A DNA stretch of 64,000 bases from Candidatus Woesearchaeota archaeon (GTDB lineage: Archaea; Nanobdellota; Nanobdellia; Woesearchaeales; ARS49): NCBI GenBank assembly GCA_038884575.1, contig JAWABQ010000001.1:33730-97729 (forward strand), given 5' to 3'. The notes below the pieces were generated by a model. The model made no database searches and was not told the DNA's origin. It saw only the letters and a program-made list of their open reading frames with translations. The position numbers were made by a program, and so were the translations under genes. Position 1 is the stretch's first letter; every line of letters starts with the position of its first letter. Shown here piece by piece: positions 14,389 through 62,400 of the stretch.

Positions 14389-14405
14389 TAATGCTCGTTT
14401 TAAAG

Positions 14406-17336: not shown

Positions 17337-17338
17337 AA

Positions 17339-17428
17339 CGCCCGAGGCAGGACTCGAACCTGCGACTTCCTGGTTTCTTCCCAACAGAGGATAACAGCCA
17401 GGCGCTCTACCTGCTGAGCTACTCGGGC
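17339..17428 (-). tRNA. tRNA-Asn (anticodon GUU) with a 17-nt intron after position 37
   Basis: Reverse-complement fold: GCCCGAG TA GCTC AGCAGGTA GAGC G CCTGG CTGTTA[tcctctgttgggaagaa]A CCAGG AAGTC GCAGG TTCGAGT CCTGC CTCGGGC G. All stems are canonical. The 3' end is 2 nt from the gatC ATG. Confidence 0.85.
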
Positions 17429-17455
17429 AGGATAAGAAAACAATGTTTGGAGAGT

Positions 17456-23151: not shown

Positions 23152-23295
23152 GTGAAAAAACCGATATCTGCCACAATAGAGGAAGACCTGATAGCATGGA
23201 TAGACAAAAAGGTCACCAAGGAGAGCAAGAAGTACAGGAACAAGTCGCACCTGATAGAGGTCGCGCTTGAGCGGCTGCGCGAGGAGGAGGACTGA
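23152..23295 (+). CDS. ribbon-helix-helix (CopG/Arc/MetJ-like) small DNA-binding protein
   Basis: Not in the ORF track because it is under 60 aa. My translation from GTG 23152 (or in-frame GTG 23143) is (M)KKPISATIEEDLIAWIDKKVTKESKKYRNKSHLIEVALERLREEED*, which has a beta-strand/helix/helix RHH pattern. Its stop overlaps the ATPase start (TGATG). Confidence 0.65.
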   Translation: MKKPISATIEEDLIAWIDKKVTKESKKYRNKSHLIEVALERLREEED

Positions 23296-36271: not shown

Positions 36272-38083
36272 TCACTGCAACGGCTCTTTCTTTGGGGCTG
36301 ACTTGGCAAGGTATTTTGAGAATGCCTTGTTCTTCAGGCCGAAATAAGCAAGGAGGACAAGCCCTATTGAAACAATTGCAAATACTGCAAGAAGCACAAG
36401 GTTTGCCCAGATTTCACTTAATGAGGCATTGAATAGTATTGTTCGGCGCAAAAGGTCGCTTCCAATAACCAGCGGGTTAAACTTTGCGACAGCCATTACT
36501 GCCGCAGGCATACTTTCAAGCGGAATGATAATGTCAGAAATGAAAAGGAGTATGCTCCCAAATGCCATGGATGCAAGCATTGCCGTCGACTCTGAGTTGA
36601 AAAGGTATCCGATAATCATGCCAAGGCAGATGTAGAGTGTCATCATCAGCGCAAGCACAACAAGGGTATAGGCAAAGGCATTCAATATCTGGGTGAAGAA
36701 TACGCCTGCGATTGCAAGTATTATCAGGAGCTGGACAACAAGCAGGAATGCAGTGGTCGCAAACACAGAGCCCATGAAAACAATGTCGCTTGTCGGGGTC
36801 ATGAAATTGCGGAAATAAGCAGGCGAGTTGCGCTCAAACAATATCAGCGTCGGCGCAAGAAGCAGCGCAGTGAACAGCATGACAAGCGCGATAAGCGTTG
36901 GGAAGATATAGTTCAGGTAGCTTTTTTCTGCAACAACAGGGACTATTGTTGTCTGCACAGGCTGGACTATTGCCTGCGGGTCTGTCACCTGGATTGCGCC
37001 GATTATCTTGTCAATCTCATTAAGCGATTTTTGAAGCGTGAGGATGTTAAGCAGCGCCTGGTCAAGCAGCTTGTTGATAATGCTGATTTCGTCAAGGGTA
37101 AACACCTTTGCATCAACTGCAAGGTCAATCTGCGCCTTTGTCTGCGTAATCCTGCCTGCGATGTGGTCGATCAGGCTGCTAAGCTGCTCATATTCGCCCT
37201 GCATTATCTCCTCTGTCTTGGTAAGCCTGTCCCTTAGCTCGGCAATTTCAATAACGCTTGCCTGCAGGGAAGATGCCAGGCTGCTGCCCACCTGCTGGCC
37301 CGCAGGGCTTTTCTTCACGAGGTCATCGACGGCATTGATGAAATGCTGAGCCTCATCAAGCGAGCTCTTCCCAAGGCTGAGCGAATTGTCAACCCAGTGC
37401 TTGACAATGCTCTTGGAGCTTGTCAGGTTTGAAATCCCAAACTCCCCAGGGTCAAGCCCGAGCTCAACCTCAAGCAGCTCTGCCTGTATGTTTGCAAGCC
37501 TCTGGCCGATTTCATCATTCTCCGTGGTAAGTGCAACAAGGTTCTGCCTCCTGTCCTTCACAGCAGTCCTGGTAAAATCAACAGCATGCACAAGGATTGC
37601 AGTAAGGTTTTTGCTCAGCTCTGTTGTGCGCGCAGAAATGCTTGTAGTCATAACATTGAGGATTGTCCATACAAGGTTAATCTGCGAATAGTCAACAGCG
37701 AATTTTATTTCGTTCGAGCCGTTTTTGCCTATTGTAAAGTCCGGCGGGAACATAATGCATGTGTGTGTTTCGCCACGCCTTATTCCCTGTATGCAAAGCT
37801 CTTCTGTCGGATAGCGCGTTATCTTGAACTGCTTCTCAGAAAGCTTCTCAATGAATGAGTTTGACAGGTCGTTGTAGGCTGGCGAATGCGTGCCTATCCT
37901 GACTGCATAAAGGCTGGTATTATCGAATGCAAGCCCTGCCAGGAAGATTATAAGCAATGGCCCAAGTATCACAACGAGCGCTGACGCCCTTGCCCTGACA
38001 AGGAGCTTTAGGTTTTTCTGTACCAGAACAACAAGGTTTTCAATCCCCCTGCGGGTCATTTCAGTGGAGCGGGTGGGTGCCAT
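36272..38083 (-). CDS. ABC-2-type transporter permease with a large extracytoplasmic/coiled-coil loop
   Basis: 603 aa with an N-terminal TM, a roughly 350-aa loop and then 5 C-terminal TM segments. An alternative start at ATG 38059 would abut the ATPase stop rather than overlap it. Confidence 0.7.
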   Translation of the reverse strand: MAPTRSTEMTRRGIENLVVLVQKNLKLLVRARASALVVILGPLLIIFLAGLAFDNTSLYAVRIGTHSPAYNDLSNSFIEKLSEKQFKITRYPTEELCIQGIRRGETHTCIMFPPDFTIGKNGSNEIKFAVDYSQINLVWTILNVMTTSISARTTELSKNLTAILVHAVDFTRTAVKDRRQNLVALTTENDEIGQRLANIQAELLEVELGLDPGEFGISNLTSSKSIVKHWVDNSLSLGKSSLDEAQHFINAVDDLVKKSPAGQQVGSSLASSLQASVIEIAELRDRLTKTEEIMQGEYEQLSSLIDHIAGRITQTKAQIDLAVDAKVFTLDEISIINKLLDQALLNILTLQKSLNEIDKIIGAIQVTDPQAIVQPVQTTIVPVVAEKSYLNYIFPTLIALVMLFTALLLAPTLILFERNSPAYFRNFMTPTSDIVFMGSVFATTAFLLVVQLLIILAIAGVFFTQILNAFAYTLVVLALMMTLYICLGMIIGYLFNSESTAMLASMAFGSILLFISDIIIPLESMPAAVMAVAKFNPLVIGSDLLRRTILFNASLSEIWANLVLLAVFAIVSIGLVLLAYFGLKNKAFSKYLAKSAPKKEPLQ

Positions 38084-39182
38084 CTTTCACAAGCGACTCA
38101 AATACCTCTGCTATTGAAGGCCTGTCAACATTCACATACGTGACAGCGATCTTGCTTTTTGCCAGGAAGCTGAGCAGTTCCTTAAGCGCCTCCCTTGGCT
38201 GCGATGTCTGCACAACAAAATAGCCCTCTTTTTCAGCTGCATCCGAATAAAGCATGCGCTTTTTGCTGCAGAATGCCTTTAGCGGGGAGTATTCCCCCTG
38301 CGCAGTCCCGATGAAAATCACGTATCTCTTGGAGTAAATATCACGCAACTGCGTTGTTGTGCCTTCCTCTGTGATTTTCTGGTTCCTGAGTATTGCAATC
38401 CTGCTGCAGTACTTCTCAAGCTCTGAAACAACATGGGAAGCAACAATAATGGTGGTGCCCTCCTTGTTGATGCGGCTTATCAAATCCCAAATCTGGTTGC
38501 GGATGATTGGGTCAAGGTCTGCAGTGGGCTCGTCAAGTATCAGGATTGAGGGGTCGTGCACTATTGCGCAAGCAATGTCAAGGCGCTTCTGCATCCCTCC
38601 TGAAAGGTTTTGCGAAAGCGTATGCTGCGCATTCCACAGCCCGACAAGCTTCAGGAGGCTGTCGCACTTTGAAATCCGCTCCCCTGGCGGAATATTGTAA
38701 AGCGAGGCAAAATGCTCAATGTTCTCGCGCACAGTAAGCTTGCCGTAGAATGAAGGCACCTGTGCTGCAAACCCAAACATCCTCTTGGCAATTTCTTTTG
38801 CCTTTAGCACAGGCACTTCTGTCTTGTCAGGAAGCTGGAGCGAAACCTCACCCTCATCAGGCTCTATGAATCCAACCAGAGTGTTAAGGAGAGTGGTTTT
38901 TCCAACACCGCTAAGCCCGATAATCCCGAAAAGCTCCCCTGGCGGAATCTCAAGGTCAATATGGTCAAGTACTAAATTCTCGCCAAAGCGCTTTGTAACA
39001 CCCCGCATCCTTACAAGAGCAGGACCTTTCGGCATAACTGCCGCCTGGGCCTCGCCGAGGTATTCCTCAACAGCCTCCTTTGGCCAGCCTGCTGCCACAA
39101 GAAGCTTCTCAAGGTCTTTTCGCTGCGCCCCGCGTGCAATAGCCTCCATTATGTGCTCGCGCAGGGCTTCCGCTGTTGCCAT
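38061..39182 (-). CDS. ABC transporter ATP-binding protein with extra N- and C-terminal domains
   Basis: 373 aa with Walker A GLSGVGKTT, signature LSGGMQKR and Walker B ILILDEPT. The N-terminal roughly 45 aa (..RGAQRKDLEKLLVAAGWPKEAVEEYL) resembles the helical module in 21795..22469. Confidence 0.85.
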   Translation of the reverse strand: MATAEALREHIMEAIARGAQRKDLEKLLVAAGWPKEAVEEYLGEAQAAVMPKGPALVRMRGVTKRFGENLVLDHIDLEIPPGELFGIIGLSGVGKTTLLNTLVGFIEPDEGEVSLQLPDKTEVPVLKAKEIAKRMFGFAAQVPSFYGKLTVRENIEHFASLYNIPPGERISKCDSLLKLVGLWNAQHTLSQNLSGGMQKRLDIACAIVHDPSILILDEPTADLDPIIRNQIWDLISRINKEGTTIIVASHVVSELEKYCSRIAILRNQKITEEGTTTQLRDIYSKRYVIFIGTAQGEYSPLKAFCSKKRMLYSDAAEKEGYFVVQTSQPREALKELLSFLAKSKIAVTYVNVDRPSIAEVFESLVKDGTHPLH

Positions 39183-39301
39183 GCCTGAATCCGAGCTATT
39201 TTCTTTTAAAAGCTAATAGGACTACTGCCGAATAGTCACTGTCCGGCTTTCCGAGTTAAAAAACGGAAATTTATTTAAACCTGTGAAAATGAGCCAATTG
39301 C

Positions 39302-39748
39302 ATGAATTGCGAAATGTGCGGCAAGGATACAGAGCTTTTCACAGCAATGATTGAAGGAAGCCAGCTACGCGTCTGCGCAGCCTGCGGAAGGTTTGGAAAA
39401 ATCCTGAAGAAAGTAAAGCTTTCTGCAAGCGCAAAGCCTGCTGCAAAAAGCGAGCCTGCCCAGGTCGAGCAGGTCGTAAGCGATTACGGCCAGCGCATAA
39501 AGGCAGCAAGGGAAAAGCTGGGCATGACGCAGAAGGACTTTGCAAAACTGGTTGCAGTAAAGGAATCCCTGATACATAAGATGGAAACAGGGCATTTTGA
39601 GCCGCCGATAGACATGGCGCGCAAGATGGAAAAAATACTCCGCATAATCCTTGTTGAAGTCCGCGAGGAAGGCGTGGTTGCCAGCGAAGGAAAGGAAAAG
39701 CGACCTGAAGGAATGACAATAGGCGACATAATAAACCTTAAGCGCTAG
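39302..39748 (+). CDS. mbf1: multiprotein bridging factor 1 (Zn-ribbon plus XRE-type HTH)
   Basis: 148 aa with CEMCG...CAACG and then ...IKAAREKLGMTQKDFAKLVAVKESLIHKMETG. TATA-like aaatttatttaaacc lies 20-30 nt upstream. Confidence 0.85.
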   Translation: MNCEMCGKDTELFTAMIEGSQLRVCAACGRFGKILKKVKLSASAKPAAKSEPAQVEQVVSDYGQRIKAAREKLGMTQKDFAKLVAVKESLIHKMETGHFEPPIDMARKMEKILRIILVEVREEGVVASEGKEKRPEGMTIGDIINLKR

Positions 39749-41166
39749 CGGGCATAAATCGAATACCAGCACTGGCCTGACTGGTCAAAGAAAACCTGCC
39801 TGAAATTCTCATTCAGGAATGCACGCATCTTCTCAATCTCAACAGGGCATTGCTCATCATCAGGCGAGCAGACAAGGCCGCCGCCGCAGTTGTCAAGCAG
39901 CACAGCGCCAACTTTTTCTGAATTTTCCATCAGGTACCTGTTGAAGTCTGCTGCTGTCTCACGGCCGTAAATAGGATAGTAAATCTTGCTTATTTTCTGG
40001 TCTGTGTAAGCTGCAACAACAGGGTTTGATGCCCAGATTTCTCCATCAATGTGCCTGCCTTCAAGCCATTTGAAGTAGCGCTCTGCTGCAGGGTCAGGGG
40101 TCCTCGGCTCGTTGCTGTGATAAAATATGACTGCATGACTTGCAGAAACGGCAAAAACAACAATAAGCACAACAACCCAGACATAGCTCGCAATTTTCTT
40201 TCTTTTTTCCAGCCAACCTGTTACTGCATCAATGCCGTGGCCTGTGAAAAGAACAACAAAAGGCAGGAAAAGCAGAAGATAGCGGTAATCACGGCAGTGC
40301 AAAGGCAGGTAGTAAGCCAAAGGAATCAAAACAGAAAGTGCAGGCAAAATGTACTGCTTTTTCCAGCTTCTCACGGCAGCAATTATTCCAACAATTGCAA
40401 ACGCGTTAAGGATATTGTCAAACAAAATCCAGCCAAAATACTGGTACCATGGCTTGTAGCGCAGGATATTGCAGCCAACCACCAAGAGTATGCTCTTGTG
40501 CGCCTCAATTACAGGCTTTAGTAGCGAGCCGTACATCATTTTGTTGAAAATAAGGAAAGGAATGACAGGCAAAACAAAGCCGATTGTGAGCGGCACAAGC
40601 TTTTTCCAGCGCTTTTGAAAGACGATGCAGGCGCCAAGGATAACTATGAATATCCCTGCAGGGAATTTGTCAAGGAATGCAAGCCCTGCAAAAATTCCTG
40701 AAATCCAATAGCGCCCGCTGATAAGGGCAAGCGCTGCCGCGAGCACAAGAGTGATTTCAGGAATTTCCGTGTACTCGTGAAACCCGAGGTAAAATAAAAT
40801 CTGGCTGAAAGCCCATATTATTGAAGAAACAACAGCTGCGCGCTTGGAAAAAACCCTTTTTGCTATTCCATAAACAAGCGCAATCGAAATAAGGGAAAGC
40901 AGGAATTCCAAAATCCTCGCAAACCAGACAATGCTGATATTAAGCACCCAGCCCGCGCCAATAACAAAGGGCCACAATACAGGCCTTATCGGCTCCCAAA
41001 GCCCTGAATTTCCCGCAGACCACAAGTACTTTGCCATTCCGAAATAAACCCCTGAGTCCCACCAGATTTCATGCCAGTCAAATAGGTAAAGCAGGCGCGC
41101 CAATGCAGCAACAAAAATCACTGAATAAAAAGTCAAATTCTGCCTCAAATGGCTTTGCACGCTCAT
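39745..41166 (-). CDS. GT-C-fold membrane glycosyltransferase (ArnT/PMT, GT39/GT83-like)
   Basis: 473 aa with about 11 TM segments, a first-loop motif ...EIWWDSGVYFGMAKYL and a C-terminal soluble domain. It is the last gene of the six-gene operon. Confidence 0.6.
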   Translation of the reverse strand: MSVQSHLRQNLTFYSVIFVAALARLLYLFDWHEIWWDSGVYFGMAKYLWSAGNSGLWEPIRPVLWPFVIGAGWVLNISIVWFARILEFLLSLISIALVYGIAKRVFSKRAAVVSSIIWAFSQILFYLGFHEYTEIPEITLVLAAALALISGRYWISGIFAGLAFLDKFPAGIFIVILGACIVFQKRWKKLVPLTIGFVLPVIPFLIFNKMMYGSLLKPVIEAHKSILLVVGCNILRYKPWYQYFGWILFDNILNAFAIVGIIAAVRSWKKQYILPALSVLIPLAYYLPLHCRDYRYLLLFLPFVVLFTGHGIDAVTGWLEKRKKIASYVWVVVLIVVFAVSASHAVIFYHSNEPRTPDPAAERYFKWLEGRHIDGEIWASNPVVAAYTDQKISKIYYPIYGRETAADFNRYLMENSEKVGAVLLDNCGGGLVCSPDDEQCPVEIEKMRAFLNENFRQVFFDQSGQCWYSIYAR

Positions 41167-43256
41167 CTGGCATACCTCGGATTGGGGTCGTCAAAGCTTG
41201 TCTGCCCAGGGAATTCCTTGAGCAGCAAATAACCATACGGGTATGATGCTGAGTGGAACAGTATTGCACGGTTTCCAGGAGATGACTGGAGCCATTGCTT
41301 AAGCACTGAGTAATCATTTGAGTTGAAAACCCTTGCTGCAATGACTTTTGCCCTTGATTCCTTTGCCTTTTGCACCACTTTTTCCATCTGGTTGAAGCCA
41401 TTAACCTGGACATAATAAAGATTTAGCGGAATTGATTCCTGCAATGCGCTGAAATAGTTTGCAGGAGTCTGGTAGTACCAAACCGCATAAGGCAAGTCTG
41501 TTGAATTCATAACAACAACCGGCTCCTTTGCTGAAATCTCAACAGGCTGGCTGCCAATGATGATTTTGTCTCCAAAGCGCTTCATTGGAGGGCTGCCGAC
41601 AATGCTGAGGTTATGCCCCAATGCAAGGCCGAGATACTTGTCAGTCAGGCATATTGCAGGAATTCCTTTCTTTGCAAGATAAGCGGCAGCCTTTATTTTC
41701 CCAGGATGGTCGCAGCAGCCCATAACCGCAGATACATTATTCCTTATTGCCTGCTCAACAAGCATATTAATTCCGTGAGTATCCATTATAACTGCAATGT
41801 CTTCCCTCAAAAACCTTGTTGTTGGGTATTGCAATTTGTCAAGTGGGACCTCGAACCTGAACACTCCGTTCTCATCAGAAGCATACCATTTGTTATTCAG
41901 CCTGGCAACAAGCGCGCCATAGGCAACAACAGGCTCTATTCCTGCTGCAGCAAGCTCTTCCATGCGCCCCCCTTCATGCCATCCAATGTCTTCCCTGAGC
42001 TCTGACTTGTTGTAAGAGAGCCTCTCCGAAAATGTTGTGAGAACATGGCTGCCGAAGATGTCTTTTTCAGCCTGCAGGCCAAGCCAGTCCCTTTTCACGC
42101 GGTCTGCCTGGGTCATGACTTTGCCGCCCTGATAAATGGCAATGGATGTTTCACCAATGATTATGCCTGAAGCATCCTGCATCTGCGCGAGCTCTGGCTC
42201 AATGCTGCCTGTTTCAAATTTTAGGTTGATTTTTTTTGACAATGCAAGGCTTTCATCAAGCTTTGCCCTTGCGGTGTTGTTAAGGGACTTCCAAAGCCTT
42301 GCAGCCTCAAGCAAAAATGCTTTTTTGTTTCTTCCGCAGTCAATTGATGCAATTGTTTCATAGATGAGCGCCTGCTTTTCTGAATTTTTGGTCTCCTTTA
42401 CTGCGAGGTCATAATACTGCAGGCTCTCGCAAATCATTGAATCATTCTTAGTAATCCTCCCAAGCATCAGCATCAGGTCTGCGCGTGCATATGCAGAAAT
42501 TTTTCCTGAAAGCATTTCAGAAAGGTTTTTGGCAAATTCATCTGCATCAATTCCGGCAGAGTCCAGCACATAAGTGAAGCCATATGCCTGCCCTGACGGG
42601 TCTGCGCGCCTGAGCAAATTCCTTATTGTTGCATTAAGCTCGCCTGCATAAACAAGCCCTTCCTTTTTCTGGCTGTCAAATATGATTGTCGGCGCTGTGG
42701 TGATATTGTACTTGGCTGCAAGGAGCTGGACAAGCGGCTCATCCTTGTAGTCCTTGTCAATTGAAAGGACAACAACCTCCTGCTCATAGTCCTTGCTCAG
42801 GTCAGCAAGGATAAATCCCTGCCTTTCGCTCAAATCGTCATCAATCTTGTAAAAGAATATTATCGGGATATAGGGGCGGTTGCACTCATTGTTCAGCTGC
42901 TCGATAAGCGTGAGGAAGCGCAGCTCAAGCAGGAAATACTTGCGCTTCAGGTAGTCGTAATCCTTTTTCTTGAAAAAACTGAATGAGCTGTAGCTGCCAA
43001 GGTCTGCGCCAACAGTCTTTATCTCCTCTTTTAGCTGCGCGATGCGGGCATTCATTGCCTCACACCTGTTTCCTCCAAATGAGTCTGTGAACTCCTGCTC
43101 TGCGAGGTAGGCAGCAGTATTCAGCTCATGCTGGCTCATCACATCTGCAATGGCGTCTATCCGCATAAAATCCAGGCTGTAATTCAGGAGTATGCCAAGC
43201 GCAAAGATTAGAATGGTCAGGAGGAGGCTGCTGACAATTATCCTGGTCCGCACCAT
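41163..43256 (-). CDS. N-terminally anchored protein: thioredoxin-like module (paralog of 43259..43891) plus a roughly 450-aa unknown domain
   Basis: 697 aa. The first roughly 215 aa align by eye with the neighbouring 210-aa protein (MVR..., ...YLAEQEF..., ...YDYLKRKYFLLELR..., ...IIFFYKIDDD..., ...YNITTAPTIIF...). Confidence 0.6.
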   Translation of the reverse strand: MVRTRIIVSSLLLTILIFALGILLNYSLDFMRIDAIADVMSQHELNTAAYLAEQEFTDSFGGNRCEAMNARIAQLKEEIKTVGADLGSYSSFSFFKKKDYDYLKRKYFLLELRFLTLIEQLNNECNRPYIPIIFFYKIDDDLSERQGFILADLSKDYEQEVVVLSIDKDYKDEPLVQLLAAKYNITTAPTIIFDSQKKEGLVYAGELNATIRNLLRRADPSGQAYGFTYVLDSAGIDADEFAKNLSEMLSGKISAYARADLMLMLGRITKNDSMICESLQYYDLAVKETKNSEKQALIYETIASIDCGRNKKAFLLEAARLWKSLNNTARAKLDESLALSKKINLKFETGSIEPELAQMQDASGIIIGETSIAIYQGGKVMTQADRVKRDWLGLQAEKDIFGSHVLTTFSERLSYNKSELREDIGWHEGGRMEELAAAGIEPVVAYGALVARLNNKWYASDENGVFRFEVPLDKLQYPTTRFLREDIAVIMDTHGINMLVEQAIRNNVSAVMGCCDHPGKIKAAAYLAKKGIPAICLTDKYLGLALGHNLSIVGSPPMKRFGDKIIIGSQPVEISAKEPVVVMNSTDLPYAVWYYQTPANYFSALQESIPLNLYYVQVNGFNQMEKVVQKAKESRAKVIAARVFNSNDYSVLKQWLQSSPGNRAILFHSASYPYGYLLLKEFPGQTSFDDPNPRYAR

Positions 43257-43258
43257 CC

Positions 43259-43891
43259 CTACTCCTTGCGGACCAGCGCCGCGAGTTCATCATATGGTGT
43301 GAGGCCCTTGCGCACAGTGCCAAAGTCCACGACAACAGAAGGCGTTCCTGCAATGTCGTAATACTCCTCAAGGAACCTGAGCTCAGGGGAATAGTTGTAT
43401 TCAATGGCAAAGACCTTGGCATCAAATTCACCGACAAGCCTGTCAAGTATGACCCCCTGCTCCTGGGATTTTGCATCATTCTGGCTGTAATAAAACAGCA
43501 GGACCGGCACTTCAACAGCACAGTCCTGCTTAAGCCTATGGTAAAGCGTGTAAGTCTTTATCTGCATCAGGTGGAATTTGCGCTTCAGGAAGTTATAATT
43601 AGCCTCTCCAAGGTCCTGTTTTGCTGTTTCAGAACCAAGCATCTTGCCAAGCTGCCAAAGCTCGCTTGACAGCGCAGAAAGCCTTAGCTTTGCAAGGTCG
43701 CAGTTTTTTTCCATCCCTGAAAACAATTCCTGCTCAATCAAATAGGATTCTGTCGTCAGCTCGCTTTGTTTTATGAAGTTATTGACATCAGAGAGCTCGG
43801 AATTACTCATGCTCCTGCCGACGATTATTCCAACTGCGAATACCAGAATCAGGAGCAAAATCATTGACAAGTATGTCTGGCGCCTTACCAT
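43259..43891 (-). CDS. N-terminally anchored thioredoxin-like protein lacking CxxC
   Basis: 210 aa with ...VLLFYYSQNDAKSQEQG..., where a Trx fold would carry CxxC, and ...YDIAGTPSVVVDF (a cis-Pro-loop-like region). It overlaps the GT2 gene by 7 nt. Confidence 0.55.
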   Translation of the reverse strand: MVRRQTYLSMILLLILVFAVGIIVGRSMSNSELSDVNNFIKQSELTTESYLIEQELFSGMEKNCDLAKLRLSALSSELWQLGKMLGSETAKQDLGEANYNFLKRKFHLMQIKTYTLYHRLKQDCAVEVPVLLFYYSQNDAKSQEQGVILDRLVGEFDAKVFAIEYNYSPELRFLEEYYDIAGTPSVVVDFGTVRKGLTPYDELAALVRKE

Positions 43892-45129
43892 TTTTTCCTT
43901 GTTCCAAGCGCCTCATGCACTATTGCTGAAATCCAGTGGATGGTGGTGACATATGGCGCAATAAATGTGTAGAGTGCAATGTGGGGCACGTGCCTGAGGA
44001 AGCGTTCATTGAATTCGCGATGCGCCAGGTATGTCAAATAAAGCCCAAGCGCAATCCCCAGCACAATGGGTATTGTGACCTGCACGTTCTGAGCGAGCAG
44101 GAGCTTCTTGAAGCCAGGAAAGTCAAGGATGTAATTGAAAAAATATCCCTTGATTGTCAGGCTCCTGTAAAGCGTCTCGTAAAGGTTGCCAAGAGTGCCA
44201 TATGCCACAAGGGTTACGGTAAGGAGCAAAAGGAAAATGCTGAGCACATTGATTGGCATCTGGAACAAGCCATAAAGCCCGTATGCCTTCTTGAACAACA
44301 GCCTGCGGTATTTCCAGTGGTTGACTGCGAATCCGCGGTACCACCTTATGCGCTGCCTCCACAAGGCAGCCCATCCCTCAGGCACTTTTGTAAACAATAC
44401 TGCCTTTGGGTCCATCTGGACGCCATAGCCGTTTGAGCGGAGCCTCAGGGCGATCTCAAGGTCTTCTGTCAGCCCGCCCTGTGAAAAGCCGCCAACCTTT
44501 TTCAGAACTGAAGTATTAAACATTGACAGCGCGCCGCCAGGGGCTATTGCGAGGGTCCCAAGTGATGACATCATCCTGCGGATAAAATTGCTTATGATGT
44601 ATTCGATACGCTGCATTTTTTCATAAAAGTTCTTTGGCTCATCAACCTTGACCTGGCCTATGACTGCGCCAAGGCCCGGGTCTGAGAAATGCGGGACAAG
44701 GTTGTTAAGAGCCTCGGGATGCACCCTTGTATCGCCATCAAGGCATGTGAAAAGCGCCCCTTTGGCGTGCGCAAGGGCAGTATTGACAGCAGCTGACTTG
44801 CCCATGTTCTTTTTGTGCTTGTAGACTTCAATCAGCATCTGCGGGTACTGTTTCTGCAGCTTCTTTGCCTCTGCAAAAGTCCTGTCAGTGGAGCAATCAT
44901 CAACTATGATTACCTGAAGGAGGCTTTTGGGATAGTTAAGCTCAGACAGCGAGCGGATTGTTTTTGCAATGCAGTTTTCCTTGTTATAGCACGGTAGTGC
45001 AACTGTAACACGCGGCAGTTTCCTGGGCATTGTTCGCCTTGGGATTGGCTCGAAAACTAGCATATTCAGCCATATCAGCGATATCCAGAGGCTTATGAAT
45101 GAAACGCCCCATAATACGTATTGTATCAT
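43885..45129 (-). CDS. processive family-2 glycosyltransferase (PgaC/IcaA/NodC/cellulose-synthase-like)
   Basis: 414 aa with an N-terminal TM, then PCYNKE, DDCSTD, DGDT, TEDLE and the QRIRWYRG (QxxRW) motif, then C-terminal TM helices. Confidence 0.8.
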   Translation of the reverse strand: MIQYVLWGVSFISLWISLIWLNMLVFEPIPRRTMPRKLPRVTVALPCYNKENCIAKTIRSLSELNYPKSLLQVIIVDDCSTDRTFAEAKKLQKQYPQMLIEVYKHKKNMGKSAAVNTALAHAKGALFTCLDGDTRVHPEALNNLVPHFSDPGLGAVIGQVKVDEPKNFYEKMQRIEYIISNFIRRMMSSLGTLAIAPGGALSMFNTSVLKKVGGFSQGGLTEDLEIALRLRSNGYGVQMDPKAVLFTKVPEGWAALWRQRIRWYRGFAVNHWKYRRLLFKKAYGLYGLFQMPINVLSIFLLLLTVTLVAYGTLGNLYETLYRSLTIKGYFFNYILDFPGFKKLLLAQNVQVTIPIVLGIALGLYLTYLAHREFNERFLRHVPHIALYTFIAPYVTTIHWISAIVHEALGTRKKW

Positions 45130-45130
45130 G

Positions 45131-46579
45131 TCACATTTTGGGCAGAATCACTGCCCAAATATCGACGGATGAGGAGTTATATGCTTTTTTAAAGGTTTCG
45201 TTGTTTCTCAGAAGGAAAAGAAGGTCCTGCTCAGGCAAATCCCAGACAAGCCCGTTTTTCATGTCCTCGGTGATGACAATGGCACCTATTTTGTTCTTGA
45301 ACAGAAGCGACCTTGCATTTGTTATGTCCTGAGAGTGCCAGATTGCCTGTGCTGCAGCCCATTTCTGTGCAATTCTTGGCGTTATTGCCGGCCAGCTGTC
45401 AAGGAAAACCTGCCTGCCAGACCAGTACTCAAGCCAAAAGCCATTGTCAGGGTGCGACAGCAGCACGGCATCCTCAGGAAGCACTGCTTTTGCAGCAAGC
45501 GCTGATTCCCTGATATCATTTGATGGCATCCCCCTGGCAAGCGCAAGGCAATGGGCAAGCGTTGAGAACAGCAGGCCGCACACAAGCACAAGCATGGTAA
45601 GCGCCCTTATGTCATCAAATGACCATTTCCTTTGGGCGAGGAATGCAAATGCATATCCTGCAAGGAATGATATGAGCAGGTGGGCAGCGGGAAGCGCAGA
45701 AGGCATTATCAATGCGGCAACAAGCGTGATACCTGCCGCAATCATCACAGCATAATATTTTTTCTTGAACTGCCACAACAGCACAAACCCTATGAATGCA
45801 AGCAGCCATGCAAAGAGGCTCAGCCCGCCTGCACCTCCAAAGTCGCTTATTGCCTGAACCACAGGAACAGGCTTTCCAAAGGGAACCTGCTCGTTGTGCA
45901 GGAATACAGGCAGGGCAACCGCAACAAGCACTATGAATGCGGCAATGCTTGAGCTGACAGCTGCAGCAGGCACCTTTTTGCTCAAAGTGCGCAACAGCAT
46001 CGGCACAACAAATGCAGCTGCTGCAGGGATTATCCCAAATGTTGCGACAAGCCCTGCAATAATTATTGAGATAATAGTAATAATTATGGTTATCCTTGCA
46101 GGACGCTTTTCAGCAGCAGGGGAAAGCAGAAAAACAAGCAGGGAAAGCAAAAAAACCTCAAGAGATGTTTGTGTTGCCTGGGCAAATGTGTTTACAAAAA
46201 AAGGCGAAAGCACAAAGACAAGCATTACAGAAACCGCGGTTGGCCTGGGAAGCTTCCATTTCCTCACAGCTGCAAAAACACACAAAATAGACAGCATCCC
46301 AAGCACCAATGGCAGAATTACTGCTGCAGCACCTACCCCTGCCAGCATTGCTGTCCCTGCAAGCAAAAGGTCAAATGCATTAATTGCATACTTTCTCTCA
46401 GGCACTGCAGGGTCATATGAGGGAATTCCTTCCTTTGCAATTATCCCAGCAATCCTCGCGTGCCCATATCCCTCGCTTCCAGGCATTACAGGCTTGTCAT
46501 TCAGCATCCTTATTGATGCAGGCAGCACCATAAGCAATATTCCGAAGACAATTATTGCAAGCATCAGCAGCCTTTTCAT
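45131..46579 (-). CDS. polytopic membrane protein, divergent STT3/AglB-like (GT-C), paralog of 46576..48081
   Basis: 482 aa with a first-loop motif GSEGYGHAR....GIPSYDP and a C-terminal ...GFWLEYWSGRQVFLDS, which is reminiscent of a degenerate WWDYG...D block. Confidence 0.5.
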   Translation of the reverse strand: MKRLLMLAIIVFGILLMVLPASIRMLNDKPVMPGSEGYGHARIAGIIAKEGIPSYDPAVPERKYAINAFDLLLAGTAMLAGVGAAAVILPLVLGMLSILCVFAAVRKWKLPRPTAVSVMLVFVLSPFFVNTFAQATQTSLEVFLLSLLVFLLSPAAEKRPARITIIITIISIIIAGLVATFGIIPAAAAFVVPMLLRTLSKKVPAAAVSSSIAAFIVLVAVALPVFLHNEQVPFGKPVPVVQAISDFGGAGGLSLFAWLLAFIGFVLLWQFKKKYYAVMIAAGITLVAALIMPSALPAAHLLISFLAGYAFAFLAQRKWSFDDIRALTMLVLVCGLLFSTLAHCLALARGMPSNDIRESALAAKAVLPEDAVLLSHPDNGFWLEYWSGRQVFLDSWPAITPRIAQKWAAAQAIWHSQDITNARSLLFKNKIGAIVITEDMKNGLVWDLPEQDLLFLLRNNETFKKAYNSSSVDIWAVILPKM

Positions 46580-48081
46580 TCAACAACACCAACATGGCAG
46601 TATGGCAGCCTCACAAACACGTCATAGCCGCCTTCTGAAAAAGTCTGAGAAAAGCACTCGCTTCCCTTAACATACCTCAACGTATTGATATGAAACCTTT
46701 TTTTTGTTTGAGGTGAGAGAAGGATGACATTGGCATTGTAACGCTCCATAAGCTCCGCAGCCTCAACCCCAAGCACGGTGCTGTAAATCCGTTCAACATC
46801 ATGAAGGCGCTGCTTTGCATCCTGCTTGTGCAGGAAATGGCTATCAATCACGTTTTTCCTCTGCGCCAGCCCTGCAATCTTATGGCCCTCATCAACATAG
46901 CCAACAACAGCAAATTCAGAGGGCGTCTGGATGCGTATCCATTCATAGGCATTGACGCCTGCAGGACTTAATGCCTCACTCTGGACTGCCCAAGCAGCCT
47001 TCCAGGAAGGCAGGATTGCAGTCAAGGCAAATGCAGCCACAAGCAGGAGCACAAACAAAGGCGCAAATTTGTGCAACCGGGTTGTTGGAATGTATGAAAG
47101 GAAAAAATCAATCCACCTGCTGAACAAGACAAGAAGGAACATGCCAAGCATCATCATTCCCAGCCGCACAGGAATAAGCTTGAACCAGAGCAGGACTGCA
47201 GCAGCAAGCGTGAATGATATGAGGAAGTATGTCATCTTGTGCTTCCTCCTGAAAAGATACCGGTACACAACGAAAATGCCGTAAAGCACAGGCAGGATTC
47301 CAATCTGGTAAATTGCGCTGATAATGGTGACATTTGCGAACTGCAGCGAAAGCAGCGCAGGCGGGATGTTCTGCCAGACGACATTAGGGCCGTAGGCAAG
47401 GATAAAGTTTTTGTAAAGCAAAAATTGGCTCCAAAGCACGAAAAAAACAGAGAACAATGATATTTCAAGCTCTGCGCGCTCCATCTTCATCCGCTCGACA
47501 AGCATAAGGAACATGTAAAAAACCAGGCCAAGGACAAACAAAAGCGCAAGCGGATGCGTGAATGACAGCAGGATGAGCCCTGCAAGGTAAAGGTAGCGCC
47601 ACTTTGGCTCCTGAACCCTCATCAGGGAATAAATCAGGAAGAAGAGAAGCGGTGTTGCAAGCACAACCGGCGAAAGCGTGTTAATCGTGTAGCCAAACCA
47701 CACAGGAACAAAGGCTGAAAATACAGCCGTGAATAATGCAATGCCATTGTTCTTTGTAATCCTGCACACTATGCAGTAGATTATTGGGAGAAGCAGGATG
47801 GCAAGAATGTTCGGAACAACCTTTACAGCAATGCTTACAGGCATGACCAGAGAGCCTGCCGCAACAACATAATGGAAAACTGGGCTAAAAAAGTACTGCC
47901 TGCCTCCCCAGCTCAATGGGTCGTCGTATAATGGCAGGCCTGTATGCCTGATGTGTTCCACCTGGCGAAGGTGGAAATATGCATCGTCACTGCTCAAGCC
48001 AGGGGTGCTGGAAGCAATCCAAAACCGCAGTGCAAATACCAGAATGCATGCAATCGCAAGCAGCCATGCGGTCCATTTCAT
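46576..48081 (-). CDS. polytopic membrane protein, divergent STT3/AglB-like (GT-C)
   Basis: 501 aa with a first-loop motif SSDDAYFHLRQVEHIRHTGLPLYDDP (compare STT3 DPxFNxR). The C-terminal VGYVDEGHKIAGLAQRKNVIDS aligns by eye with the STT3 block WWDYG(Y/H)xI..xAxR..xxDN. A leaderless-type TATA lies 23 nt upstream. Confidence 0.5.
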   Translation of the reverse strand: MKWTAWLLAIACILVFALRFWIASSTPGLSSDDAYFHLRQVEHIRHTGLPLYDDPLSWGGRQYFFSPVFHYVVAAGSLVMPVSIAVKVVPNILAILLLPIIYCIVCRITKNNGIALFTAVFSAFVPVWFGYTINTLSPVVLATPLLFFLIYSLMRVQEPKWRYLYLAGLILLSFTHPLALLFVLGLVFYMFLMLVERMKMERAELEISLFSVFFVLWSQFLLYKNFILAYGPNVVWQNIPPALLSLQFANVTIISAIYQIGILPVLYGIFVVYRYLFRRKHKMTYFLISFTLAAAVLLWFKLIPVRLGMMMLGMFLLVLFSRWIDFFLSYIPTTRLHKFAPLFVLLLVAAFALTAILPSWKAAWAVQSEALSPAGVNAYEWIRIQTPSEFAVVGYVDEGHKIAGLAQRKNVIDSHFLHKQDAKQRLHDVERIYSTVLGVEAAELMERYNANVILLSPQTKKRFHINTLRYVKGSECFSQTFSEGGYDVFVRLPYCHVGVVE

Positions 48082-58786: not shown

Positions 58787-59413
58787 ATGAGCAAAAAAGT
58801 CGCGGTTGCCATAATTCTGATTGCCGCAATCATAATTGTCCTTGCGCTTGTCCTGCTTTTGACAAGGCCAAAGCCTGCTGTTTTCAGCGATGACCCAAAG
58901 GACTGGGTTGTCTCAGAAGGAAGGAACAGGACAGTGGATGTTGTCATTGCAACAAAAGGGGACAGCCACATGGATGCAAACGGCCAGCAGTATGACACAG
59001 CCACCATCGGCACGGTTTTTGCCTCGCAGGGATGGTACAGAGGGGTGCAGTTCAGGAACAGTTATGCGCAGAACGGCAAAACACTCATGCGCGTCGGCCC
59101 CTCAATGATTCCAAATGATGGCGTGCTTGACGGCTTCATAATGGAAAAGCTCGGGCAGGACGGTCCAAAGCTCTATGTCTTCCTTGACGAGGACTGGAAA
59201 AAGTCATTCCCAAGGGCTGCAGTCTATTGGGGCAAAAACTACCAGCTTGACATGCCTTTTGACTTCACAAAAAGCGTTGCAGACGGCATTTACCTTAACA
59301 TCGTGCCAGATGACCCGGAAAGGTTTGAGAACAATTATGCAATCCACCTGGGCGGAGCCTGGGCAGGGGACTTGCGCGACGACGAGACTTCTACACTAGT
59401 TGCATTAACCTAG
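58787..59413 (+). CDS. N-terminally anchored hypothetical protein
   Basis: 208 aa beginning MSKKVAVAIILIAAIIIVLALVLLL. It converges on, and overlaps by 4 nt, the giant gene. Confidence 0.6.
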   Translation: MSKKVAVAIILIAAIIIVLALVLLLTRPKPAVFSDDPKDWVVSEGRNRTVDVVIATKGDSHMDANGQQYDTATIGTVFASQGWYRGVQFRNSYAQNGKTLMRVGPSMIPNDGVLDGFIMEKLGQDGPKLYVFLDEDWKKSFPRAAVYWGKNYQLDMPFDFTKSVADGIYLNIVPDDPERFENNYAIHLGGAWAGDLRDDETSTLVALT

Positions 59414-62400
59414 AAGCATCCTGCTATGCTCGCAGTATGGTGGGGCCATGCAGCACACATCTCAAGTATGTATGCAGTTGCCATTCCTGCAACATCAACT
59501 GCAGTGGCAACAAATAATGCAGTAGCGCCAGCAGCAGTTCCGGCTGTCATTCCGGTAAGGGCAAGTCCTGCAGCAATCGAGGCAATTGTCAGTGTGGTGT
59601 CAACTGCCTTTACAAGCCCGCTCTTTGCAGTAAAGCAATAATTATTGCCATTATTGTACGAGGCATCAATGTTGCGGGGAATGATTATGAATGCAGGAAT
59701 TGTGGTTGTTAAATCAAGCCTTGTGCCGCGGTTTGACTGGGTTGGCGAAGGAGCAGCGGATTCATGGCAAAGCTTGACAGCAGTTGCAGTATCGCCGTTG
59801 TAATAATGATAAGTGAGTGAGCTTTCATTGGCTGTATCAATAAACCACTTTGTGTTGTACACCTTGAATGCAAGCATTCTGGCAAAATATGCCATCTCTG
59901 CAGAATCCCTGTTCGCAGCATACTCTTTCTGCACAGCCTTGTCCAGCTCATCCCAATTGATTTCAAGCTTTTCATAAGGCGCATTTGGGTTTTTCCACGG
60001 GCATGCAATGCCTGGCTTTAACTCGCATTTTTTGAATATAAACAAGTCAATAAAGGGGTGCGCATTTGGATTGAAGATATGAGCTCCGGCAGATGCTCCA
60101 GAGCCAAGGCTTGTCCACCAGTCCTCAAGAGTGTAATAAAGCACTGAGTTTTCATCCCTGCCTGGAGCCAAGCTTATGTCGCCGCCAAGCGGATATGCAG
60201 GGCTAAAGTCCTGCACAGAAAGCTTGTTTAGAAGCGCTGTCCTAAAGTCAATAAACTGCTCTGGCGTAAGATTCTTTACCTGGTCGAATCCTGCGCGGCG
60301 CAAGTCAACCCCCTTCAGCCCTGCTGCAAGAGTAAACGGCTGGACTTTCAGGCTCCTGACAAATGTTTCAGGGTCAGTGAACACTATTTCGCCAAATTCC
60401 TTAAAGGCAAGCGGGTCTTCCCTTATTGCAGTGCGGATGCCGTCAAAAGGCGAGTCCCAGTAAGGACCGCGGCTCTGGCTCCAGAATCCCTTTGAGCCGT
60501 CAATCAAGTAACTTACTTTCTGCTTTGAATCCATCTTGTCCCAGGCGCGCACTATTGTTATATTGCCCTTGCCTGCAATCGGCTCTATGCCCTGCAGGCG
60601 CACAATGCCCTTGGCGTCAGTAAAGTTGTAGATGTACTCATTGTGCCAGAAAGCACAGCCGCGATATGTTGCCAGCATATCATAGTCTGCCTTGCACGGG
60701 CTTGCTGCAAAGAACCTCACCCTTGAGTCATCCTCCTTGAGCATTTCAGAATAATAATGGTCAGAGCCAGGGGTGTCAAAAGTGTATTTCTTTGTCAGCT
60801 GGGGCGCAAGCGGCTTTATCAAGCCATAAGTGTTCTTGCCAACTCCAATGAACTTCTGGTTCTTGCTGTCCTCAAGCGCCATGAAATATGAAAGCCCCAC
60901 CAGTATCGGGAAATAATGGTCGCGGACAAATTTTGCGCACGTCCCAACCGTGCCTGTGGCAAGGCCTGCTAAAAGTGCGCCGCCAGCGCCAACAGCAACC
61001 CCTGCCTCTGGCTTGACTTTTGAAGCTTCTGCGCCCAAACCAACCCCAACGCCTGCAGGAATGACGCACCCAAGAGACCGTGCCTGGTTTTTGATGAACT
61101 CCTTTAGCATTTGGGGCGTGGTACCTGCAGGCAATGGCCCGCCTGCTTTCTGAATTGTTCCTGCCCACAAGCCCTTGCCCCATGTCTTTGCACTGAGCAG
61201 GTCACGCATTTCATCAACCTGAACGCCATATGCAGTGGGCTTTCCTGCATCATCAACACTCATCAGCAGCTTGCTCAGTGCGCTTTCAGAAGAATCATCA
61301 AGCAAGGCCTGGAAATTGATGTTGCCCAAATCATCAACATAAGAGCTTGCAAGCTCATCAGCCTGCTTTATCATTGTCTCATACATTCCAGGGTCTGTCT
61401 TTTTCAGCGCCTTAAGCCCCTTGACAGCATCTGTCAATGGCTTTTCCAGAGTGCCTTCCTTCAGCAATGCCTTTATTCCCTTCTTGAAGCCAACACGCCG
61501 CATCAGCAGCCCGACTGTTGAAAGATCTGCCTGCCCAAGCGCCCTGATTGCAGCGTCTTCTGCATTAACAGCAGATGAGCGCAAATAGTTTGCAACATCA
61601 TTTGCGCTTGCCAGCCCTGGTTTGCCAGCAGGCATTTCAGCCATTTTGATAAGCTCGTCAACCTGGGAGTCAGTCATGGCAATCTTTGCATCGCCAGCAA
61701 TTGTCTTGATTTCCCTGCGCAGCAATTCCTTTCCAGCATCTGTGAAAGTCCCGCTTACTGGAATTCTTGCCTCATCAAAAAGGCTTGGATTAAATAAATT
61801 GCCTTTTACAATTTTTGCTTCCGCAATATTAATGCTTTCTATGTTATTCTTTATACCTTGTATCCTTGACATTAGTCTGTTTGCAACATCATCAATGATT
61901 GATTCTGCAGGAAGCGAATTAATGCCTTTCATTGAAACCTTAACCAGGTCGCGGAGGCCATCTGTCAAAAAGCCAAGCTTTTCCAAATTATCAAGATATC
62001 CCTGGATTTTTATTGCGCGCGCCTGTTTCTGGGCATCAGAGAGCTTGTCAAACCCGACCAGTAATCTCTGTATGTTTTTTGAGGTTCTTGTCACAGCATC
62101 GCTTATCTTGACGACTTTCTTGAGAAGGGCAAAAGCCGCCTTGCCGCCAAGCGGAAGCATGGTAAGCGCCCCCTGCACGCCAAGAACAACAAAAAACACA
62201 GTCTTTGAGGAATACTGCCATGCCTTTTCCTCACCCTCTGGGAATTTTTCATAATACGCAAGGAACTTTGGGTCTCCTGAGCCGACAATAAGCTCTTCTG
62301 CCACAGATACCTTTTGCGGAAGCTCAAAAGAGCGGACTGTGCACTCCAACCTTTTGGCATGGTAAGCGCTTGCACTTAGCGGGCAAGCTAAAAGGTCTCG

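Follow-up and report, generated by a model that had tools for sequence, protein, structure and literature searches.

A six-gene membrane protein cluster conserved in Woesearchaeota as a candidate envelope glycoconjugate assembly and transfer locus

Overview and Proposed Function of the Cluster

A 64,000-nt window of a Candidatus Woesearchaeota genome (assembly GCA_038884575.1, contig JAWABQ010000001.1, positions 33,730 to 97,729 of the forward strand) contains a minus-strand cluster of six genes (39745-48081), designated here G1 to G6 from upstream to downstream; according to the open reading frame (ORF) list and a hydropathy scan, every product is a membrane protein (Table 1). We read this cluster as a lineage-specific Woesearchaeal locus for the assembly and transfer of an envelope glycoconjugate, organised in two sub-modules, and assign this reading a probability of roughly 55%. 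Sub-module A would comprise G3, a PgaC-like family 2 glycosyltransferase (GT2), and its extracytoplasmic partners G4 and G5; sub-module B would comprise the GT-C proteins G1, G2, and G6, acting at the outer face of the membrane on polyprenyl-phosphate-linked donors. The two sub-modules are connected, because fusions between a PMT_2-type GT-C protein and the C-terminal domain of G5 (the C-domain) are found in some Woesearchaeota (P0282 and L065).

In the scheme that we infer, G3 would use a nucleotide sugar at the cytoplasmic face to produce a membrane-associated glycan, either a glycolipid or a beta-linked oligomer or polymer that is driven across the membrane. On the outer side, single-pass partners carrying thioredoxin-fold modules and the C-domain would handle this product. 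The thioredoxin-fold modules of G4 and G5 would act as binding rather than redox modules, because their CxxC motif has decayed to DxxS or QxxS while the cis-Pro groove has been kept; the C-domain, carried by G5 on a TPR-like stalk, would bind or modify glycans, possibly in a metal-dependent manner. In sub-module B, G6 would be an ordinary PMT_2-type transferase, and G1 and G2, an old duplicate pair, would either transfer a glycan to a different acceptor or constitute a partly non-catalytic pair. The products of the cluster may form physical complexes, and the extracytoplasmic topology, donors, product, acceptor, and order of steps in this scheme are putative.

Conservation of the Cluster in Woesearchaeota and Beyond

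A synteny scan of one genome per species with a G5 profile returned 77 loci, and all named loci among them belong to Woesearchaeota or Nanoarchaeia. The recurrent gene order is RadB(-), G1, G2, (G3), G4, G5, G6, MBF1(-), and an ABC transporter. In the 53 species loci that contain both G2 and G4, G3 lies between these two genes in 24 loci but not in 28; the cluster genes are collinear as 1-2-3-4-5-6 in 13/53 loci and as 1-2-4-5-6 in 22/53. Because G3 is present in the closest relatives of the window and in many distant ones, this pattern suggests that it was lost or relocated in particular clades. The constant core of the cluster is G1-G2-G4-G5-G6, and the GT2, being absent from 28 of the 53 species loci, is not its obligate centre. 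An earlier interpretation made without database searches (hereafter, the sequence-only reading) had proposed a self-contained synthesis and transfer system with genes that should be syntenic in relatives; the 53-locus survey bears out the synteny and the conservation of the cluster, but not a self-contained operon centred on the GT2.

In distant variants, the C-domain is encoded by a separate gene, and a GT2 gene followed by a thioredoxin-module gene is found nearby on the other strand (inverted variants L052, L055, L058, L061, L063, L078, L068, and L074). Two further loci (L054 and L073) carry, inserted between G5 and G6, a short GT2 resembling dolichyl phosphate (Dol-P)-hexose transferases, ArnC, and AglJ, together with an extra GT-C gene. 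Altiarchaeales IMC4 presents the order GT2 (33% identity to G3 over the full length, 4e-76), a 411-aa thioredoxin-module protein with a CAGC motif, a 130-aa gene, and a 361-aa C-domain protein, and a bacterial-looking contig presents a GT2, a TPR protein, and a TPR::C-domain protein beside Wzy_C, GT9, and GT4 genes.

A scan of metagenomes with divergent stand-alone C-domains yielded 80 loci, 38 of which were of at least 6 kb. A G3-family GT2 was found in 21 of these 38 (160-194 bits against the G3 profile, QxxRW present, PgaC_IcaA as best NCBIfam model). In most cases, the GT2 gene directly precedes the C-domain gene in the same orientation, spaced by -18 to +40 nt, or is separated from it by one small gene; G1, G2, G6, and the thioredoxin module were found in none of these metagenome loci. 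By this distribution, the GT2/C-domain pairing is old and widespread, with the GT-C trio added in Woesearchaeota. In two bacterial-looking metagenome loci, the gene between the GT2 and the C-domain gene encodes a class-E-like sortase (L089, 7249-7977) or a prepilin-type protein (L152, 6286-7515), a hint that surface structures of the cell are the target of the GT2/C-domain pair there. The contexts of two stand-alone C-domain genes (L066 and L081), of a YwiC fusion (L085), and of a Nitrospirota homolog (L083) were uninformative. Neither this cluster nor any STT3-like protein of Woesearchaeota was found described in the literature that we searched; a few G1 homologs carry the automatic labels "Stt3" or "glycosyltransferase family 39", and almost all other cluster homologs are labelled "hypothetical".

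G3, a Membrane-Embedded GT2 of the QxxRW Type

Motifs and profile matches place G3 among the membrane-embedded GT2s of the QxxRW type rather than among the Dol-P-sugar synthases. Its translation contains DDCSTD, DGDT, TEDLE, and QRIRWYRG, with one N-terminal and two or more C-terminal transmembrane (TM) segments, and the whole catalytic set of DDxSxD, DxD, QRxEY, TED, and QRxRW is present; the residues D78/S80/D82, D131/D133, Q173xxE176Y177, T221-E222-D223, and Q259-R260-x-R262-W263 are invariant or nearly so in 26 orthologs. Pfam matches include Glyco_tranf_2_3 (1.9e-32), Glyco_trans_2_3 (1.2e-27), Glyco_transf_21 (7.5e-17), and Chitin_synth_2 (1e-7), and the best NCBIfam model is PgaC_IcaA (1.3e-49), although the equivalog cut-offs were not reached for PgaC_IcaA (169.3 vs. 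422.3 bits) or NodC (78 vs. 550 bits). Compared with PDB sequences, the G3 profile matched, in each case through the QxxRW region, PcManGT (6yv7; 1e-33), BcsA (8e-25), hyaluronan synthase (3e-19), chitin synthase (2e-10), and the non-processive ceramide glucosyltransferase (4e-12). Over the entire catalytic domain, no solved enzyme matches G3 better than the archaeal PcManGT, a Pyrobaculum GT2 implicated in N-glycan biosynthesis.

Pfam, NCBIfam, and motifs thus agree with the PgaC/NodC-like identity first assigned to G3, and the NCBIfam and PDB comparisons group it with QxxRW membrane synthases and not with Dol-P-sugar synthases; the latter grouping would have spoken against that assignment. 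The accompanying claim that D,D,D,QxxRW together with TED is a signature of processive synthases needs narrowing: the motifs are there, but they are not specific to processive enzymes, as non-processive lipid glycosyltransferases (ceramide glucosyltransferase, HpnI, CruG, and MftF) share them and also score against G3.

The window also encodes a 328-aa protein with a full GGDEF diguanylate cyclase domain (4584-5570, minus strand; Pfam PF00990, 1.3e-43) that retains an intact GGEEF active site and an intact RxxD I-site (RAID). Because the bacterial PgaCD and BcsA synthases are activated by cyclic di-GMP, a link between this protein and the PgaC-like G3 can be put forward, by analogy, as a lead. 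GGDEF proteins are, to our knowledge, nearly absent from studied archaea. BLAST hits for GGDEF in DPANN and Asgard archaea have been mentioned in passing (PMC8646023). Near the GGDEF gene lies a gene for a DHH/DHHA1 phosphoesterase (6149-7303, minus strand; Pfam 4.6e-7 and 1.9e-9), which could be a nanoRNase, a cyclic-dinucleotide phosphodiesterase, or a RecJ-like protein.

Thioredoxin-Fold Modules of G4 and G5

G4 and residues 1-213 of G5 are paralogous (30% identity, BLASTP E 4e-30). In the AlphaFold2 (AF2) model of G5 (pLDDT 83, pTM 0.75), an anchor helix at the N-terminus leads into a helical stalk that is modelled with lower confidence; the thioredoxin fold (130-215) comes next, then a helical repeat (229-338, with pLDDT 83-96), and finally an alpha/beta region that extends to the C-terminus. 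In Foldseek comparisons, residues 130-215 matched thioredoxins with E of about 2e-4, target TM-scores (TMt) of 0.65-0.79, and root-mean-square deviations of 1.9-4 A, and G5 aligned over 260 columns with YbbN/CnoX, which combines a thioredoxin domain lacking CxxC with TPRs. In sequence searches, the module gave only sub-threshold Pfam matches to thioredoxin and TraF (TraF 3.8e-4, below the gathering score), and the G5 profile matched only designed thioredoxins among PDB sequences.

In a joint alignment of 42 G4 and 50 G5 orthologs, two cysteines (C64/C124 in G4 and C65/C125 in G5), an SxxQG motif, and the proline of the cis-Pro loop (P184 in G4 and P189 in G5) are invariant. No redox CxxC is present in G4 or G5, as the corresponding position reads QNDAKSQEQG in G4 (YSQNDAKS, QxxS-type) and DDLS in G5 (YKIDDDLS). 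A motif census of 182 family members found 110 with DxxS, 34 with QxxS, 12 with HxxS, and one with CxxC. The Altiarchaeal homolog (hhalign probability 99.2) reads KDCAGCREQG opposite IDDDLSERQG of G5, so that the conserved serine stands in for the second cysteine of an ancestral CxxC. The description of both proteins as thioredoxin-like, lacking CxxC, and sharing a module of about 210 aa is therefore upheld by the G5 model and the G4/G5 BLASTP match, with the position of the lost motif fixed by the Altiarchaeal CAGC.

The C-Domain of G5

The C-domain and its wide association with GT2s had escaped the sequence-only reading, although it is the most conserved part of the cluster (median identity of G5, 51%). 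It matched no Pfam, NCBIfam, or PDB sequence, and a Pfam search of 28 diverse homologs revealed no recurrent family. Across divergent members, D390, D492, G495, D516, D539, Y601, and R642 are invariant, and E428, K474, H494, K520, H668, and D690 nearly so, a pattern which suggests that the C-domain is an enzyme, perhaps a metal-dependent one.

A C-domain profile found 1184 relatives among 1.84 billion representatives, with Altiarchaeales and a Nitrospirota bacterium among the named carriers. The domain occurs alone (350-400 aa), with TM and TPR segments (~500 aa), or fused to PMT_2 GT-C proteins, S-layer domains (S_layer_C), CE4 polysaccharide deacetylase, long TPR arrays, or YwiC. Stand-alone homologs start with signal anchors or Tat-like RRxFLK signals, and the C-domain is therefore predicted to be extracytoplasmic.

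G1 and G2, an STT3-Fold Paralog Pair

G1 belongs, by model and profile, with the catalytic subunits of oligosaccharyltransferase (OST). In the PDB, a profile built from 36 G1 orthologs matched human STT3A (7.8e-7) and PglB (3e-5), as well as A. fulgidus AglB-S2 in its C-terminal domain (1.8e-4). The AF2 model (pLDDT 90, pTM 0.88) has as its top 19 Foldseek matches in the PDB exclusively OST catalytic subunits, namely STT3A/B, yeast Stt3, AglB, and PglB, with E from 4.6e-13 to 2.7e-8 and query TM-scores (TMq) of 0.58-0.76 (STT3A 4.6e-13 and TMq 0.73; STT3B TMq 0.76; AglB 4e-10; PglB 6e-9); DPY19, AftA, ALG12, and ArnT rank below, and the AglB-S2 C-domain matches the model at TMt 0.59. G1 and G2 show no significant BLASTP similarity (E 0.81), and their paralogy is visible only with family profiles, which align over their full length (hhalign probability 99.9, E 9.3e-33, 449 columns). 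The G2 profile on its own reached STT3A at 0.07 only, in the same region as the G1 match. The GT66-type GT-C fold with a C-terminal extracytoplasmic alpha/beta domain is thus found in G1 by its model and in G2 through its alignment with G1. In Pfam searches with single sequences, neither protein matched STT3 (PF02516) at E<=1, the only match being PMT_2 at 2-3e-3 (G1 2.3e-3), below the gathering score. The two proteins had been proposed to be paralogs and degenerate relatives of STT3/AglB; the hhalign comparison confirms the former, and the latter resemblance proves not to be spurious, being supported for G1 by profile and fold and for G2 by homology to G1.

The translations contain SSDDAYFHLR/GLPLYDDP and VGYVDEGHKIAGLAQRKNVIDS in G1 and GSEGYGHAR/GIPSYDP and GFWLEYWSGRQVFLDS in G2. 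In external loop 1 (EL1), EFDPYFNYR of STT3A lies opposite SDDAYFHLR of G1, and at the second acidic motif WFDDRAWYPLG lies opposite LYDDPLSWGG. At the column of the catalytic EL1 aspartate (PglB D56/STT3A D49), 89% of the G1 orthologs (D33) and 83% of the G2 orthologs (E36) have D or E; both EL1 acidic residues of G1, D33 and D54, are retained. Invariant polar residues of G1 include R19, R39, D54, K87, and E206, with WQNIP at 236-240, and those invariant in G2 include R42, D56, and D394. This conservation of EL1 acidic and other polar residues argues for a function of both proteins. In the profile alignment, the WWDYG region of STT3 lies opposite SveeGhlitalakrknvidsn in G1 and HPedGFWleywsgkqvllD in G2, and the motif itself is absent from G1 (YVDEGH here, xxEG in the family) and G2 (DNGFW), with only the glycine kept (G399 in 97% of the G1 family; G380 in G2). 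In STT3, WWDYG clamps the sequon at its +2 Ser/Thr; with this clamp lost, G1 and G2 would be unable to recognise N-x-S/T in the canonical manner. SYDNEG of STT3A (DxD/DNE after TM3) lies opposite tin.tlSp of G1 (TINTLSP), which has no acidic residue, in a low-confidence stretch of the HMM alignment. G2 is the fastest-evolving member of the cluster (median identity 30%, vs. 36% for G1 and 51% for G5), and G1 and G2 are adjacent intact ORFs in 47/54 loci.

In the distant Woesearchaeote L065, genes for a canonical AglB (Pfam STT3 4e-14, motif WWDFG) and then an NAD-dependent sugar epimerase precede G1-G2-G3-G4, after which come a PMT_2::C-domain fusion and, last, a 1451-aa surface protein. Because a canonical AglB adjoins the cluster, G1 and G2 are extra STT3-fold proteins and not the primary OST, at least in L065. 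No ORF with a WWD[YFW]G motif, as expected for a canonical AglB, was found in the window or in the 10 kb upstream of it.

G6, a PMT_2-Type GT-C Protein

G6 matches PMT_2 in Pfam above the gathering score (2.1e-12; 48.0 bits vs. a cut-off of 26.1), which substantiates its proposed ArnT/PMT-like GT-C identity, and also matches GT22 (2.3e-6). A profile of its orthologs matched GPI mannosyltransferase 1 in the PDB (1.8e-8). The EL1 residues W36-D37 (WWD) are invariant in 19 orthologs, and extracytoplasmic cysteines are conserved. G6 is distantly homologous to G1 (hhalign probability 93.7), with no significant BLASTP match between the two. In Haloferax, AglS adds Dol-P-borne mannose on the outer face (PMC3871713); by analogy with this enzyme, G6 probably uses a polyprenyl-phosphate sugar.

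Points Against the Proposed Function and Alternative Readings

Several observations weigh against a two-part glycoconjugate locus as proposed here. G1 and G2 may be inactive, as both lack WWDYG and the position aligned, with low confidence, with the DxD/DNE of STT3 reads TINTLSP. G4 and G5 are equally conserved in the 28/53 loci that lack G3, so sub-module A cannot depend on a GT2 encoded in cis, and QxxRW GT2s include non-processive lipid glycosyltransferases. The fold of the C-domain is weakly assigned (PBP-type-I/LacI-like, TMt 0.26-0.31 in a Foldseek search with full-length G5), and an NAD-dependent sugar epimerase/dehydratase, of a domain type usually found in the cytoplasm, is fused to one C-domain homolog. 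Finally, the wider neighbourhood (rpS2, RadB, MBF1, and the ABC transporter) is collinear too, so that synteny alone overstates functional linkage.

An unlikely alternative is a non-canonical multi-subunit OST, in which G1 and G2 would be active catalytic subunits, perhaps as a heterodimer with altered site recognition, G4 and G5 would hold the acceptor as Ost3/Ost6 do, and G3 and G6 would build the lipid-linked glycan. The best structural matches of G1 are human and yeast STT3, its EL1 acidic residues are retained, and the neighbours of the L065 cluster are a canonical AglB, a sugar epimerase, and a large surface protein; the closest solved relative of G3 over the whole catalytic domain is PcManGT, an enzyme implicated in N-glycan synthesis. 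In yeast OST, the thioredoxin domain of Ost3/6 faces the active site of Stt3 (PMC8191290). Yet WWDYG is lost in both paralogs, the DxD-aligned position is non-acidic, G4 and G5 differ from Ost3/6 in having only one TM helix, at the N-terminus, and in lacking CxxC, and in Altiarchaeales and the inverted variants the thioredoxin module travels with the GT2 and not with GT-C genes. It is likewise doubtful that G1 and G2 form an STT3-derived heteromeric transferase that passes a lipid-linked glycan to a novel acceptor, with G4 and G5 as acceptor-holding proteins and the C-domain as a new glycan-processing family shared with many bacteria. If this were true, the acceptor could be a non-sequon protein site, a lipid, or the polymer made by the GT2, and the cluster would represent an archaeal multi-subunit counterpart of the eukaryotic OST-Ost3/6 arrangement that arose outside Asgard/TACK.

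The cluster could also be regarded as a synthase-dependent exopolysaccharide system (poly-N-acetylglucosamine-, chitin-, or hyaluronan-like), with G3 as a processive synthase and translocon and the GT-C genes as incidental neighbours, but we consider this improbable, and equally so the corresponding roles of G4 as a PgaD/IcaD/BcsB-like co-subunit and of the C-domain as a PgaB/IcaB/PelA-like modifying enzyme. PgaC_IcaA as the best NCBIfam model of G3, the invariance of QRxEY, TED, and QRxRW, the widespread GT2/C-domain pairing, the fusion of a C-domain to a CE4 deacetylase, and TPR fusions as in PgaA, BcsC, and PelB would all fit such a system. They are set against the persistence of G1, G2, G4, G5, and G6 in the 28/53 clusters without the GT2, a G3 score far under the PgaC equivalog cut-off (169 vs. 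422 bits), a C-domain with no detectable similarity to CE4, GH153, or GH166, and PMT_2::C-domain fusions that tie the C-domain to GT-C enzymes as well.

Less probable still is that G1 and G2 are catalytically dead, AglB-derived scaffolds or binders of lipid-linked glycans that organise G6 and G3. The lost WWDYG, the non-acidic DxD-aligned position, the coexistence with a canonical AglB in L065, and a rate of evolution that is the fastest in the cluster (36% and 30% identity for G1 and G2, vs. 51% for G5) are consistent with pseudo-enzymes; the two intact ORFs nevertheless stand side by side in 47/54 loci, with invariant polar loop residues and an EL1 acidic position that are typical of a preserved active or binding site. 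That the six genes are mere neighbours in a rigidly collinear core-genome segment, where the flanking rpS2, RadB, MBF1, ABC transporter, and CysRS genes are collinear too, is highly improbable in view of their shared strand and overlapping stop and start codons, the PMT_2::C-domain fusions between cluster components, the recurrence of GT2, thioredoxin-module, and C-domain combinations in distant lineages with different surroundings, and the insertion of further glycosylation genes at this site in relatives.

Gene Layout and Neighbouring Genes

Within the cluster, G1/G2 and G5/G6 overlap by 4 nt each and G3/G4 by 7 nt, while 1 nt separates G2 from G3 and 2 nt separate G4 from G5; the hydropathy scan gave ~11, 10, 3-4, 1, 1, and 12 hydrophobic segments for the six products, respectively. 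The tight packing of six genes with exclusively membrane-associated products, as noted in the sequence-only reading, is hence confirmed, and all motifs that it quoted for G1-G5 are present in the translations. A TATA-like TTTTATAAA upstream of G1 is a candidate archaeal promoter of the six-gene unit. The GC content of the cluster (0.46-0.50) is like that of the remaining window, and the six genes are vertically inherited and probably co-transcribed. An origin of the cluster by horizontal gene transfer or as an artefact was ruled out, because its composition is native and its synteny vertical.

Table 1. Features of the six-gene cluster and of the related L065 locus (coordinates refer to the window unless L065 is named).
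Feature	Coordinates	Strand	Length	Description
G1	46576..48081	-	501 aa	STT3/AglB-fold GT-C paralog
G2	45131..46579	-	482 aa	Paralog of G1
G3	43885..45129	-	414 aa	PgaC/NodC-type membrane GT2
G4	43259..43891	-	210 aa	Single-pass protein: TM anchor, helical stalk, thioredoxin-fold domain
G5	41163..43256	-	697 aa	Thioredoxin module, helical repeat, and C-domain
G5 residues 1-215	42612..43256	-		Paralogous to the G4 module; TM anchor and stalk, then thioredoxin fold (130-215)
G5 residues 229-338	42243..42572	-		Helical-repeat (TPR-like) linker; Cys pair C276/C307 invariant
G5 residues 353-697 (C-domain)	41166..42200	-	~345 aa	Unannotated alpha/beta domain, predicted extracytoplasmic
G6	39745..41166	-	473 aa	PMT_2-type GT-C
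TATA-like TTTTATAAA	48104..48112	-		Candidate promoter element read from the sequence; centred ~27 nt upstream of the G1 ATG
L065 glycosylation genes	102-3848 and 8672-15841 (L065)			G6 and G5 C-domain fused as a 921-aa protein; 1451-aa fn3/Ig-like surface protein after it

Just downstream of the cluster lies an ABC-2 transporter pair (36272-39748), consisting of an ATPase with a DrrA-like C-domain and a 603-aa permease matching ABC2_membrane_3, and an MBF1-like gene (39302-39748, plus strand) is convergent with the cluster; both the transporter pair and the MBF1-like gene keep their collinearity with it in almost every Woesearchaeal locus. The window is archaeal, with genes for RadB, MBF1, and ribosomal proteins, and its G5 shows 100% identity to a protein from a Candidatus Woesearchaeota MAG. 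Two ORFs (23295-27715, plus strand) encode a 757-aa T2SSE-type secretion/pilus ATPase (Pfam 1.8e-14) and, overlapping it, a 729-aa protein with no Pfam match; they probably represent a type-IV-pilus-like or archaellum-like assembly pair. A 1266-aa ORF (59410-63210, minus strand) matched no Pfam family at E<=0.001, had no identical product in the assembly collection, and may encode a large surface protein. An unnamed tRNA of 90-92 nt (17338-17429, minus strand; ARAGORN anticodon call 'gtta', Rfam tRNA 64.6 bits) is probably an intron-containing archaeal tRNA.

Significance and Comparison with Known Systems

Woesearchaeota are abundant, uncultured, small-genome archaea that are thought to depend on contact with other cells. 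Situated in the collinear part of the core genome, retained in all species loci that were examined, and made up wholly of unannotated families, the cluster is a leading candidate for the machinery behind their surface glycoconjugate. G1 and G2 would provide a natural example of an STT3 fold re-used after loss of the sequon clamp, and the G4/G5 module a thioredoxin-fold family in transition from CxxC to DxxS; the C-domain, as a widespread uncharacterised partner of PgaC-like GT2s in archaea and bacteria, offers a concrete target for biochemistry.

With STT3, AglB, and PglB (GT66), G1, and by homology G2, share the multi-pass GT-C domain, a long EL1 with a DxYFxxR-like acidic residue, a second acidic motif of the WFDD type, and, at the C-terminus, a small mixed alpha/beta domain resembling the one in AglB-S2. 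Unlike these enzymes, G1 and G2 are short (~500 aa) and form an adjacent paralog pair without a Pfam STT3 match; in place of WWDYG, G1 has xxEG(H) and G2 has DNGFW, no acidic residue is aligned with DxD/DNE (in a weak stretch of the alignment), and WQNIP is peculiar to G1. Like eukaryotic OST with its accessory subunits Ost3/Ost6 (Tusc3/MagT1), the cluster combines an STT3-fold protein with a membrane-anchored protein of the thioredoxin fold, but G4 and G5 have one N-terminal TM helix in place of four C-terminal ones and DxxS/QxxS in place of CxxC, their module is linked evolutionarily to the GT2 and not to GT-C genes, and no sequence homology to Ost3/6 was detected. TraF of the F plasmid and YbbN/CnoX of E. 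coli resemble G4 and G5 in having kept the thioredoxin fold and the cis-Pro loop while losing CxxC, and the layout of a thioredoxin domain followed by a helical repeat in G5 is YbbN-like; the module of G4 and G5 differs from both in its N-terminal membrane anchor, long helical stalk, conserved cysteine pair, SxxQG motif, and GT2 as a genomic partner.

G3 has its catalytic motifs, QRxEY, TED, and QRxRW included, in common with PgaC/IcaA, NodC, chitin synthase, hyaluronan synthase, and BcsA, and its TM segments are arranged at the N- and C-terminal ends as in these enzymes. It differs from the PgaC system in a score of less than half of the equivalog cut-off and in the lack of PgaA, PgaB, and PgaD homologs, its partners being a thioredoxin-fold module and the C-domain. 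With the polyprenyl-phosphate-sugar pathways (Haloferax AglD/AglR/AglS, ArnC/ArnT, and GtrA/B/V) as the comparison, G6 is a PMT_2-type GT-C with an invariant EL1 aspartate, resembling enzymes that draw on Dol-P or Und-P sugars at the outer face, and a Dol-P-hexose-synthase-like GT2 with an extra GT-C, as in those pathways, is found in the L054 and L073 clusters; by contrast, no Dol-P-sugar synthase or flippase is encoded in the cluster of the window, and the only solved sequence relative of G6 is GPI mannosyltransferase 1. Surface glycosylation by a GT2 together with GT-C proteins is therefore a kind of system that is already known, and what is new here is its composition: paired STT3-fold proteins without WWDYG, thioredoxin modules in which CxxC has given way to DxxS, and an unannotated domain that partners the GT2.

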